DNA from: a virus
Taxonomy: Duplodnaviria > Heunggongvirae > Uroviricota > Caudoviricetes
Length of the DNA stretch: 22,015 nucleotides
Reading direction: 5' to 3' (one strand)
IMG/VR virus record: IMGVR_UViG_3300028797_000113
The position numbers and the translations under genes were made by a program. This document shows positions 680 to 3,217 of this stretch, one piece after another (within the stretch, counting starts at the first letter, position 1; the number at the start of each line of letters is the position of its first letter). The notes under the pieces are model-generated. The model did not search any database, was not told the origin of the DNA, and saw only the letters and a list, made by a program, of their open reading frames with translations.

Positions 680-709
680 TTTACAATAACATTTCATTAT
701 TTATATAAT
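680..709 (+). promoter_or_regulatory. Putative sigma70/sigmaA promoter
   Basis: TTTACA (680-685), 18-nt spacer, TATAAT (704-709). Confidence 0.45.
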
Positions 710-802
710 TCTCTTTTTTGCTTCTTTTTTCTCTTTTGCCATTTTCCAAGAAAAATTTTTTCTTTTTTTTGCCTTTTTTTCGGGTGCTATTTTTCGGGTG
801 GG

Positions 803-830
803 TTGAGTTTTGCAAACAGTCTGCTATTGT
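803..830 (+). promoter_or_regulatory. Putative extended -10 promoter upstream of the structured tract
   Basis: TTGAGT (803-808), 16-nt spacer, TG-n-TATTGT (822-830). Confidence 0.3.
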
Positions 831-1043
831 GGAATTGCAAGTTGATGACGCGGACATCACTTGAGATAACTATAATTCCGCGAGAAAGGTTGTGATTTTA
901 TTCGATAGTACGTTTTTAATAATCTGAAACTCTATATATTCCCCGCCGTGTGCGTTATAACGCCACATTGGGACACGCAAGCCGTAGCGATAGCGTCAAA
1001 GCCGTGAGCGTGCTATAGGGTGGATAAATTACATACAGTCATC

Positions 1044-1603
1044 ATCCGTGTGTGTGTATCGGTTGCCAATGTTAGCCACAAACGATAGATAGCACGTCAA
1101 AAAAACGGGCTTCGTTCCCGAACGTGCGGAAAGATATGAGGTACAACACTATGACAACGATTACAGAATTACTCAACGTATGGGCAACATTGGACAATGC
1201 ACAGAAAGACAAGGCTATGAGCATACTCAACGCTATGTCTAACGAAAAGACCGCAAAGGTCGAAGATAACACGCTGGTAGAGAACATCTTCGCTAATATG
1301 CCGAAGTTTAAGAAGAACGCGAAGCGTTTATTCCTTACAGAGCAGACACACCGCTATTACGGCATCCATAAAGCGCTTGTTGCTTTAGGCGCAGAGTGGA
1401 TTAAGAAAGAAGACAGCGAGTACGAGTGCGGTTATTGGCAGTTTAAAGATACCGCGACTTGCGAAGACGCTTATAAGAAGCAGTGGGCATACGCTAACGG
1501 ACAGAACGAACAGAACAAGGTCTATGACTTCGTAATTGGCGCGTTCTAAACACACATTTAGGTAACTTCGGCTAACATTGGCACACGATATAAGCACACG
1601 GAT
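1044..1603. repeat. 34-nt imperfect inverted repeat (long-range stem) flanking the 132-aa ORF
   Basis: 1064-1077 TGCCAATGTTAGCC / 1570-1583 GGCTAACATTGGCA (14 bp perfect), plus 1057-1061/1586-1590 and 1044-1052/1595-1603 (9 bp perfect). Confidence 0.9.
1151..1549 (+). CDS. Hypothetical protein (132 aa) embedded in the structured tract; ALGAEW...YW segment reminiscent of DUF5710-like small domains
   Basis: GAGGT RBS at 1138-1142 before ATG 1151; normal protein-like composition. Domain resemblance is weak. Confidence 0.8.
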   Translation: MTTITELLNVWATLDNAQKDKAMSILNAMSNEKTAKVEDNTLVENIFANMPKFKKNAKRLFLTEQTHRYYGIHKALVALGAEWIKKEDSEYECGYWQFKDTATCEDAYKKQWAYANGQNEQNKVYDFVIGAF

Positions 1604-2800
1604 AGTGCAAGAATTAAAACCGCTTAGGTTAGACGGCTTATATGAACGTCACTCAAGGCGCACGTTAAGTGGCAACCCATCTTTAAGATGTCCATACGCA
1701 GTAGCGTGGTTGTGGATAATTCTCACACATAGACACGATATGCACAAGTCGAGTTGTTGCGAATGAGCGCACAACAAATGCTTGGAACAGATTTAGCGAC
1801 AAAACGTATCTTGGCGGAGTAGCATTGGTGCATAAAACCCTTGTCTGTTCAATAGTGGGGACACGACAGAGTGTAAAGACAACGTGTATAGCGTGTTGTG
1901 GGACAAGATGCCTAACATTAGTGAATGAGTATTTCGTGAACCGCATTTATCACGGGAAAGACGGTAAGTTGTCGGACTGAACAAGTTTGCGGGACTTGAA
2001 CCCACGTGGCAACCCTCAAGAAGTGTGTGCGTACTTCGACTGAACGAAAGAGTTAGTCAGTTTGGGCTTGGACAAGTAGGTTATGCATAAGTGAGCATCG
2101 TGGGCAAATAGTGTATGTGTTTGGGTGGCATACACTCATATTGGGACTGTCGACTTTGACACGTCGCCGACTTCTGTTCGGCGTAGTCCGTGGGTAACCT
2201 TTGGTTACGGCTATCCGTACCATTGGCACTCATTTAGAACCATAGGACAAGCGTGTACTTACGACTATCTATAAACAAGCGTGCAAGGATCACGCGTTGA
2301 TAGGTGGCAGTTCGTGGTGTGAGAACGACAAGCAGGAAGTCGTGGGGTGCAGAATAGTGCGCTTTACTCACACCACACAAGATACCAAAAACTTCAAGGT
2401 GCGTGTGATGATGTGTTGCGTCATAACGTACACATCATTATTCCCCTTGAGCGTCACTCACGCCAATGAAAAAACGACGATAAAAGTGTGGAGCGTGAGC
2501 CGCTATAAACCATAGGTGCAACTTACCATTAGCAATAATGGTTTCCGGCACAAGGGGCAGTTGGAGTAGGTGCTGTCGAAAAAATTGGTGGACTATGCCG
2601 ACCTTAACAGGCATAAGACAGTACACGAAAGTGTTGGTGCTGACCACATTAGCAACTGTTATCGGGTGCAACTCCCGATGGTAGCATTTCAGAAACGTCT
2701 AATAGAGCAAAGTGACTATGATAACACGTAGTTGCGTGGTCGCTTTCGCCGTAGACGTGCAACAACGGAAACGAACAAACGACGGAAAGGGGGTGTCGCT

Positions 2801-2860
2801 ATGATACCGCAGACAACTTGGGCAGACATTATGGATGCATATAACAATACCGACAAATAA
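2801..2860 (+). CDS. Putative 19-aa micro-protein (MIPQTTWADIMDAYNNTDK)
   Basis: GAAAGGGGGT RBS directly upstream; first ORF of the array. Confidence 0.45.
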   Translation: MIPQTTWADIMDAYNNTDK

Positions 2861-2887
2861 CGCAAATGCGTTGGAAAGGAAACGAAA

Positions 2888-3217
2888 ATGAAATACGTAA
2901 TCACGCAGGACTACCATAGCAACTATGTTGCAATAGACAAGAACGGAAACGCATACGTACACCGTCAAGGCACTATGTGTTATAGAGAACCGAAAATGAA
3001 GTGGTTTAACACACTTGAAGAAGCAAGGGAATTTGCAAACAAGGTGGCAGACCATCCACTTTGGGAACGCTTATATAGTCACGGCATAGACATATGTGAA
3101 GCGATAATTACACGTCACGTTGACGAATACGGAAATCGTTATACAACAGTTAACGCAGGCAAAATCATTTCCAGCGTGCCTGTAAAGAAATCGGATTATA
3201 GCAAATACTGTTGGTAA
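2888..3217 (+). CDS. Hypothetical phage protein (109 aa)
   Basis: GGAAAGGA RBS; contains the FNTLEEA motif. Confidence 0.85.
   Translation: MKYVITQDYHSNYVAIDKNGNAYVHRQGTMCYREPKMKWFNTLEEAREFANKVADHPLWERLYSHGIDICEAIITRHVDEYGNRYTTVNAGKIISSVPVKKSDYSKYCW

Follow-up and report, generated by a model that had tools for sequence, protein, structure and literature searches.

Structured RNAs of more than one kilobase, predicted as a new family in an early cassette of SPbeta-like phages

The subject of this analysis is a 22,015-nt stretch of phage DNA (hereafter the window; IMG/VR record IMGVR_UViG_3300028797_000113, Caudoviricetes), which corresponds to bases 95340–117354 of a complete 129,668-bp genome, and in particular a gap of about 1.2 kb that follows a small protein gene. 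Comparison with related loci shows that ~1608–2757 on the + strand belongs to a new family of exceptionally large structured RNAs, 1.17–1.37 kb in length and under purifying selection, and that the family is carried by SPbeta-like phages of gut or rumen Bacillota. The stretch is non-coding and conserved and its helices covary on one strand, as in a large structured non-coding RNA. An initial annotation, made from the letters alone, had described 945–2758 as one candidate RNA of 1.8 kb at the head of the early operon. The main part of that observation (the gap, the covarying helices and a conserved RNA) stands. The 1.8-kb extent does not, the boundary at 945 found no support, and the folding z-scores are modest. 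Its suggestion of a possibly undescribed large non-coding RNA or structured leader is borne out by strong covariation together with the lack of any Rfam match. Positions given below are those of the window unless a contig is named, and its features are collected in Table 1.

Related Loci and the Cassette

Sequence look-ups with two flanking proteins yielded the near-identical loci L016–L022 (94–97% identity), the partial locus L004, and the diverged loci L023 and L025. Three more (L005–L007, from IMG/VR) were found through a neighboring 310-aa late gene, and L027–L031 through a profile search with the small protein. A related-locus search with the two flanking small proteins gave nothing, and a blastn comparison with 50,697 phage records gave no match.

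Seven phage lineages that diverged deeply from one another share one module. It consists of a small open reading frame (ORF) from a single, very small protein family, a helix of 29–40 bp that brackets this ORF, a gene-free RNA stretch, and a micro-ORF of ~19 codons. At every locus with enough DNA, the public gene calls leave 1254–1449 nt without a called gene after the ORF. The RNA, counted from the end of the ORF up to the conserved start codon that comes next, has 1169–1374 nt in six lineages, and pairwise identity between lineages is 42–60%. The module always occupies the same genomic place and is present in a single copy.

Two sibling phages, L005 and L006, in which the neighboring gene is 66–69% identical, have neither the ORF nor the RNA. 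In the same slot they carry unrelated ORFs on the − strand, of 212 aa (L005:8147–8785) and 246 aa (L006:7928–8668), and L005 also retains a 92-nt remnant of the RNA's 3′ domain (L005:7992–8083, − strand; 38 bits to the 3′-domain model described below). Because the siblings fill this slot with unrelated protein genes, the unit appears to be accessory and not a part of core replication; judged by gene content, ORF and RNA together are a replaceable cassette rather than core machinery.

Coding Status and Constraint

The absence of an ORF led by a ribosome-binding site across 1550–2760, noted in the initial annotation, was confirmed: from the stop at 1549 up to the ATG at 2801, the + strand has no ORF of at least 90 aa, and the public gene calls of relatives are empty there too. 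No frame spans the gap when TAG, TGA, or TAA is read as sense (TAG=Q, table 4, TAA=Q). When log-odds of codon usage, calibrated with long genes of this phage, were scanned along the window, 1124–1549 and the genes from 2888 on stood out, and no genic codon signal appeared in any of the six frames over 1560–2760. When all stop-to-stop frames of the relatives were compared with the window by tblastn, no peptide-level similarity was found within 900–2700.

One frame was considered as a gene and rejected. Read with TAG as sense, 2198–2860 is open for 220 codons, contains four TAG, and ends in the frame of the micro-ORF. Its codon scores are sub-genic, it has no Pfam match, and it has no counterpart in relatives; judged by its codon scores and its lack of conservation, it is open by chance.

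Constraint on the gap is visible among sister strains, from which the 1.25-kb stretch differs at 2.7–3.8% of sites (divergence 0.028–0.039). For comparison, synonymous divergence (dS) is 0.15 in the embedded ORF and 0.18–0.22 in the neighboring late gene. The whole non-coding stretch thus evolves 4–6 times more slowly than synonymous sites of adjacent genes, which excludes gene decay.

Covariation in the 3′ Domain

The last ~270 nt of the RNA fold into a four-way junction followed by a hairpin (Table 1). RNAalifold predicted 51 pairs, 29 of them with double changes, from a plain MAFFT alignment of six sequences representing five lineages, with the window's lineage left out. A covariance model of the core of this domain (R1; 197 positions, 47 pairs) finds the held-out window on the + strand over the full length of the domain, with 86.5 bits (E 2.4e-26), and this is the single match in the genome. 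In an 11-row alignment, 95.8% of cells are standard pairs, compared to 30–45% when partners are slid by 1–3 columns, and 34 of the 47 pairs have both partners changed. Covariation scores 0.679 here and at most 0.114 in the slid controls, and none of 500 shuffles scored as high. These rows were fitted to the model, but the structure itself comes from an alignment made by sequence only, and its construction did not involve the window rows.

The helices of the nine full-length rows contain 352 Watson–Crick, 53 G–U, 0 A–C, and 9 other pairs, and this asymmetry between G–U and A–C indicates selection on the + strand RNA. Several of the elements named in the initial annotation recur among the covarying helices: the GCAA-capped stem at 2525–2542 is H4, and the closing compound hairpin at 2695–2758 is H7/H8. 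The abrupt end of structure before the A-rich tract was likewise recovered, as the last pair is at 2756, ahead of the tract and the ribosome-binding site.

These counts bear on the reading that the region does not act as RNA, and is instead a DNA-level element (an origin, packaging site, or protein-binding array) or a set of decayed genes at a divergent-promoter region. Such a reading would suit the position next to the late/early strand switch, where the cumulative GC skew turns, and the 220 open codons of the TAG-read frame could be taken for a gene relic. We consider it extremely improbable. An excess of 53 G–U over 0 A–C in 47 covarying positions is selectable only in + strand RNA, the region has no internal repeats or iterons of note, divergence is 4–6 times below the synonymous rate, and the TAG-read frame scores below real genes, lacks a Pfam match, and is not kept in other lineages.

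Helix H6 abuts H1 without a linker and covaries. Its loop is UUCGACU or UUCAACU in L028 and L029, which fits the T-loop pattern UUCRANY, and UGCAACU in the window. The junction at 2503–2684 has the topology of a cloverleaf, in which the last arm would stack on the closing stem and, in L028 and L029, may be T-loop-like. It differs from tRNAs and viral tRNA-like structures (TLS) in that the closing stem has just 4 bp and there is neither a CCA end nor an anticodon arm. As a tRNA the junction was rejected, since ARAGORN and the Rfam tRNA model find nothing there and the TLS match falls below its gathering score.

A search with the loop pattern of the 3′ hairpin returned 5 viral matches, one of which (L035) is the L007 contig again, and 17 genome matches. 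No family member and no host was identified among them, 21 of the 22 loci having been scored with model R1.

The Bracket Helix and the Embedded Gene

Upstream of the RNA body, two arms pair across the small ORF. This bracket helix is present in all seven lineages with available 5′ flank (the window type, L023, L007, L027, L029, L030, and L031), spans 29–40 bp in each, and is 85–97% paired when G–U is counted. The 5′ arm ends 32–59 nt 5′ of the start codon (in the window, measured to the ATG at 1136), and the 3′ arm starts 21–46 nt past the ORF stop. Arm sequences differ by lineage with pairing kept, around a fixed 5-bp core, UAUCG/CGAUA, that is flanked by a mismatch or wobble. The duplex has about two helical turns or more and joins distant segments of one transcript, as an RNase III-type stalk does.

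Processing stalks flank bacterial rRNAs, and RNase III sites occur in the early transcripts of phages such as T7 and lambda. The bracket helix resembles them as a near-perfect duplex of 29–40 bp between segments of one transcript with a spacing of ~490 nt. A nuclease specific for double strands would find it long enough, and cleavage would separate the parts of a polycistronic early RNA. Unlike rRNA stalks, it encloses a protein-coding segment and leaves the structured RNA outside, and it has a conserved core (UAUCG/CGAUA) flanked by mismatches; cleavage here is a prediction only.

The enclosed gene at 1151–1549 has the best codon score in its frame. Against near-identical strains its dS is 0.15 and its nonsynonymous divergence (dN) is 0.016–0.027, giving a dN/dS of 0.11–0.18, and by this pattern of substitution it is a real protein gene under purifying selection. 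This segment is therefore mRNA, so the 1.8 kb claimed at 945–2758 cannot be one plain non-coding RNA. The 5′ boundary at 945 was supported by none of the tests.

A profile search of 1.84 billion representative proteins found only 12 relatives of the small protein, and the ORF proteins of other lineages are just 23–30% identical to that of the window. No Pfam or PHROG family was found at E ≤0.01, the RRM profile included, and the same searches found no nuclease, transposase, reverse-transcriptase, maturase, or endonuclease domain. An AlphaFold2 model based on a 14-sequence alignment has a mean predicted local distance difference test score (pLDDT) of 63. Residues 60–135, in the C-terminal half, were modeled better (blocks with pLDDT 69–87), as beta-alpha-beta-beta-alpha-beta. 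The top Foldseek and VIA-align rows for the model are RRM domains, including the telomerase-RNA-binding xRRM, and other ferredoxin-like folds. A search of AlphaFold DB clusters gave weak ferredoxin-like or RRM rows and nothing else, and a look-alike search of the ESM Atlas gave no usable match. The modeled RRM-like fold is a lead for RNA binding and not evidence of it. Larger proteins also contain the C-terminal domain of the small protein as a fusion, at residues 250–345 of P0014 (345 aa) and residues 1486–1529 of P0022 (1820 aa).

A coding stretch in a helix-closed loop of a larger structured RNA, with protein and RNA co-inherited, recalls the proteins encoded in group I and group II introns and the tag ORF of transfer-messenger RNA (tmRNA). 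The locus could accordingly be seen as a ribozyme, for instance a self-splicing intron, or as a mobile element of RNA or DNA whose terminal inverted repeats are the 34-nt arms and whose mobility protein is encoded by the ORF, and the presence or absence of the cassette among sibling phages would be in keeping with this. We nevertheless think it highly improbable. Intron and tmRNA cores are absent, and with E allowed up to 10 the models of group I introns, group II introns, and ribozymes still have no match, which agrees with the initial failure to recognize group I or II intron cores. There are no exons to join, given that no host ORF is interrupted, no open frame enters at 1040 or leaves at 2757, and the micro-ORF has a ribosome-binding site and ATG of its own. 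The protein lacks the maturase, endonuclease, nuclease, transposase, or reverse-transcriptase domain that such elements would bring, and the genomic place is constant with a single copy. Finally, the arms change their sequence by lineage while their pairing stays, with an excess of G–U, unlike transposon ends, which would keep their sequence.

Other Sub-Domains and Folding Energy

Two further sub-domains, M1 and M2, lie within the body. For M1, seven sequences that represent four lineages align well under plain MAFFT, and RNAalifold then gave 25 pairs, 13 with double changes. The same program found no pairs in a 10-sequence MAFFT alignment of M2, in which the stems are out of register. An anchored helix search of M2 revealed two further stems whose sequence varies with pairing kept. 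Stem Hc and hairpin Hd correspond to the structure proposed at 2314–2376. A model of M2 (R3), made from L007, L028, L029, and L031 only and with three hand-set helices, finds the window at the expected place only (17.1 bits, E 0.003). In M2, 93% of cells are paired, compared to 24–52% in slid controls, and 8 of 13 pairs are double-changed. Covariation among homologues, which had been named as a check on the structure, is thus strong in the bracket helix, the 3′ domain, M1, and M2.

Other elements were traced within the window's own type. In the long hairpin proposed at 2394–2450, the pair G2398–C2446 has become A–U in sister strains, a compensatory change. A second compensatory change replaces U1755–A1773 by C–G. 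At the junction proposed at 2144–2189, the stem 2166–2182 has only G–U-compatible changes, with its loop free to vary. A full-length RNAalifold fold of three lineages was too gappy for trust, and no closing helix that joins the RNA's 5′ end with its 3′ end, or the leader with the body, was consistently placed.

The predicted folding energy of 1550–2760 is −384 kcal/mol for the + strand and −325 kcal/mol for the − strand. The z-scores, from 150-nt windows with 40 dinucleotide shuffles each, were equivocal: they reach about −3 only at 2250–2550 and 2626–2850, on the + strand only, and are about 0 over 1550–2100. On thermodynamics alone the claim would be undecided.

Comparison with Known Structured RNAs

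A search of the window with Rfam 15 gave no family at or above its gathering score, and the RNA region of six related loci likewise gave none. With E allowed up to 10 on 700–3100, there were two chance matches only, to Tymo_tRNA-like and snoR639. The former (a viral TLS) scores 21.9 bits against a gathering score of 40, and the cloverleaf-like junction with H6, which may be T-loop-like, would explain this weak match. ARAGORN found no tRNA or tmRNA in the 22-kb window, and the Rfam tRNA model has no match in it.

The closest known RNAs in kind are OLE and the phage-encoded GOLLD (~800 nt) and ROOL (~580 nt); most GOLLD and ROOL loci adjoin tRNA genes. Like GOLLD and ROOL, the new RNA is very large, has covarying helices, multi-way junctions, and GNRA loops, and comes from gut- or rumen-type sources. 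It has no match to the covariance models of GOLLD, ROOL, or OLE, and no tRNA genes lie beside it. At 1169–1374 nt the body is ~1.5–2 times longer than these approximate lengths, as the initial annotation had supposed when it called the RNA longer than GOLLD and ROOL. Whereas GOLLD and ROOL are stand-alone genes, the new RNA lies inside a polycistronic early operon, and without exception it is accompanied by a small protein gene of its own, which a long helix loops out. A survey of structured RNAs in phages reported motifs of only 29–151 nt, and the new family is absent from it (Fremin et al., 2023; PMC10690425).

These similarities raise an alternative in which the RNA assembles by itself, as a homo-oligomeric cage or other RNA-only assembly like GOLLD and ROOL, with the neighboring protein a passenger. 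We judge it quite unlikely, even though the RNA is large, ornate, and phage-encoded, its samples are of gut or rumen type, and its many GNRA loops and T-loop-like hairpin could mediate RNA–RNA contacts. It shows no similarity to the GOLLD, ROOL, and OLE models, and it lacks the nearby tRNA genes of most GOLLD and ROOL loci. Cryo-electron microscopy has demonstrated that GOLLD and ROOL can assemble without protein (Kretsch et al., 2025; PMC12286853), which favors such an assembly for phage RNAs of this kind. Here, however, the ORF and the RNA diverged together in each of the seven lineages, as one unit would, and this speaks for a functional link between them.

Genomic Setting and Flanking Signals

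Late genes, including the one for the large terminase, run leftward and end at 133 of the window, and a rightward array of many small genes begins past a T-rich divergent region. The terminase (genome C1:88215–89966; L003:8215–9966, − strand) is 42% identical to those of the Bacillus phages SPbeta and phi3T (~127–135 kb), and its other matches are from phages of Clostridia, lactococci, and enterococci. By these matches the phage is SPbeta-like with a host in Bacillota, and its strong Shine–Dalgarno sites are consistent with this. A tRNA gene is present in the late region of one related contig (L007:10860–10930; Rfam tRNA, 40 bits).

The RNA lies in the first rightward transcription unit and is co-oriented with ~55 downstream genes. 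The promoter candidate at 680–709 could drive the whole unit, and relatives have a −10-like TATTAA element at the matching place. The motif TTACACCTCA (643–652) is invariant or nearly so across lineages, ~400 nt 5′ of the bracket helix, and is followed by a T-rich tract and then the −10-like element; a promoter or operator specific to the phage is one possible role. The putative leader hairpin has stems that differ by lineage yet stay paired: UGAUG/CAUCA in the window, UCCAAGU/ACUUGGA in L023, CCUGAGU/ACUCAGG in L029, and AACCAA/UUGGUU in L007.

Directly 3′ of the RNA, the micro-ORF peptide (MIPxTTWADIMDAY...) is kept with synonymous changes in L023, L025, L028, L029, and L030. On this comparison the micro-ORF probably encodes a real micro-protein, always immediately 3′ of the RNA. 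Its DNA pattern has 0 matches in IMG/VR and 2 in metagenomes of the Joint Genome Institute (L032 and L033), both without the protein and without the RNA.

Table 1. Features of the cassette and its flanks in the window. Paired segments are separated by a slash.
Feature	Position	Strand	Description and basis
Candidate sigma-70-like promoter	680–709	+	TTTACA, 18 nt, TATAAT; consensus scan, 11/12 matches
Leader hairpin	839–862	+	Stem 843–847/855–859, loop ACGCGGA; upstream-region alignment, by eye
Bracket helix, 5′ arm	1040–1077	+	34–38 nt, conserved core UAUCGG; pairs with 1570–1607
Small protein gene	1151–1549	+	132 aa with start ATG 1151, or as many as 141 aa with start GTG 1124
Bracket helix, 3′ arm	1570–1607	+	Inverted repeat of 1040–1077; the pair encloses the small ORF
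Body of large structured RNA	1608–2800	+	~1.2 kb; no ORF, low divergence, conserved length, no Rfam family
Sub-domain M1	1966–2149	+	Long-range helix CCACGU/ACGUGG (~2003–2007 with 2100–2104) and hairpin 2112–2118/2130–2136 with conserved loop UGUUUGGGUGG
Sub-domain M2	2259–2375	+	Stem around conserved AUAAACAA loop, with inner hairpin
M2 stem Hc	2325–2329/2339–2343	+	Anchored helix search
M2 hairpin Hd	2342–2351/2358–2367	+	Anchored helix search
Long hairpin	2394–2450	+	Minimum-free-energy fold; local z ~−3; seen in window type
3′ domain	2489–2757	+	Four-way junction and 3′ hairpin; covariance model R1
H1	2503–2506/2681–2684	+	Closing stem of junction, 4 bp
H2–H4 arm	H4, 2525–2542	+	Ends in GCAA loop 2532–2535
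H5	2557–2562/2654–2659	+	90-nt insertion in window lineage, with GAAA-capped stem 2623–2634
H6, T-arm-like hairpin	2660–2666/2674–2680	+	7 bp, 7-nt loop (UGCAACU in window)
H7 of 3′ hairpin	2697–2701/2752–2756	+	
H8 of 3′ hairpin	2705–2719/2736–2749	+	
Strong ribosome-binding site	2787–2796	+	AAAGGGGGUG; directly 3′ of the RNA, after A-rich linker
Micro-ORF	2801–2860	+	19 codons, peptide MIPQTTWADIMDAYNNTDK; behind the AAAGGGGGUG ribosome-binding site

This setting bears on the most serious rival, a cis-acting leader, in which the 1.2 kb would stay on the early mRNA and control the genes behind it, the micro-ORF first. A scan for terminator-like sites between the RNA and the early genes found none, so a free RNA would need processing, and the co-orientation with ~55 genes fits a leader. 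So does the last hairpin, which is followed after ~30 nt by the very strong ribosome-binding site of the conserved micro-ORF, and so does L005, which has lost the rest but keeps its 92-nt remnant of the 3′ domain upstream of early genes. Even so, we rate a cis-acting leader as unlikely. Known cis-acting antiterminator RNAs (HK022 put, EAR) and leaders measure 70–300 nt, and a stretch of 1.2–1.4 kb kept through 42–60% identity is far above that need. Siblings express homologous early genes without the RNA, and a leader leaves unexplained the tight co-inheritance with a dedicated protein gene. Were it a leader, it might work, with the same low probability, through processive antitermination, translation control, or protection of the mRNA 5′ end after processing.

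Proposed Mechanism

On balance, though by a modest preference, we favor the explanation that this is a new large RNA family in a cassette with a small protein gene, a long helix, and a micro-ORF, and that the RNA is processed, acts in trans, and has an accessory early role. The unit would be transcribed as a single early RNA from a promoter near 680–709. The bracket helix would serve as an RNase III-type processing stalk, as in rRNA precursors, and cleavage there would free the small-protein mRNA and give the large RNA its 5′ end. A compact tertiary fold would be taken up by the 3′ domain, to which the cloverleaf-like junction, the T-loop-like hairpin, and the GNRA loops belong. The released RNA would then act in trans, in all likelihood bound to the co-inherited RRM-like protein in a ribonucleoprotein, and we infer an accessory and early role in host takeover or counter-defence.

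Several results weigh against this explanation. The RRM likeness is weak (Foldseek E ≥0.13, VIA Z ≤6.2, pLDDT 63, and no Pfam RRM match). The strand evidence from the bracket helix, whose pairs summed over lineages are 201 Watson–Crick, 20 G–U, 10 A–C, and 7 other, is weaker than that from the 3′ domain. Because its 5′ arm leaves the ribosome-binding site uncovered, the helix could also have a simple architectural role within a single large RNA into one of whose loops the ORF is inserted. The M1 model (R2) did not find L028, L030, or L031, and R3 did not find L023, L025, or L030. About 550 nt of the body (1608–1965 and 2150–2258) are supported by conserved sequence blocks and overall constraint only, and folding over 1550–2100 is no better than in shuffles.

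A bolder version of the processed, trans-acting RNA is possible but doubtful: a new phage ribonucleoprotein that pairs an RNA of >1.2 kb, the largest class of phage non-coding RNA to date, with a dedicated RRM-like protein encoded inside the RNA's own processing stalk, made first and acting on the host. If true, it might act as a decoy or inhibitor of RNA- or tRNA-directed defences through its tRNA-like junction, or as a large ribozyme.

Apart from rRNA, few structured RNAs are very large, and the known classes (GOLLD, ROOL, OLE) have each yielded an unexpected architecture. The family described here is longer than all three and absent from Rfam 15. It also comes with handles on function, namely a partner protein, a helix with a conserved core, a conserved micro-ORF, and natural "knock-out" relatives that carry other genes in the slot. 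These make it a target for cryo-electron microscopy, for chemical probing, and for studies of early phage–host conflict in gut Bacillota.

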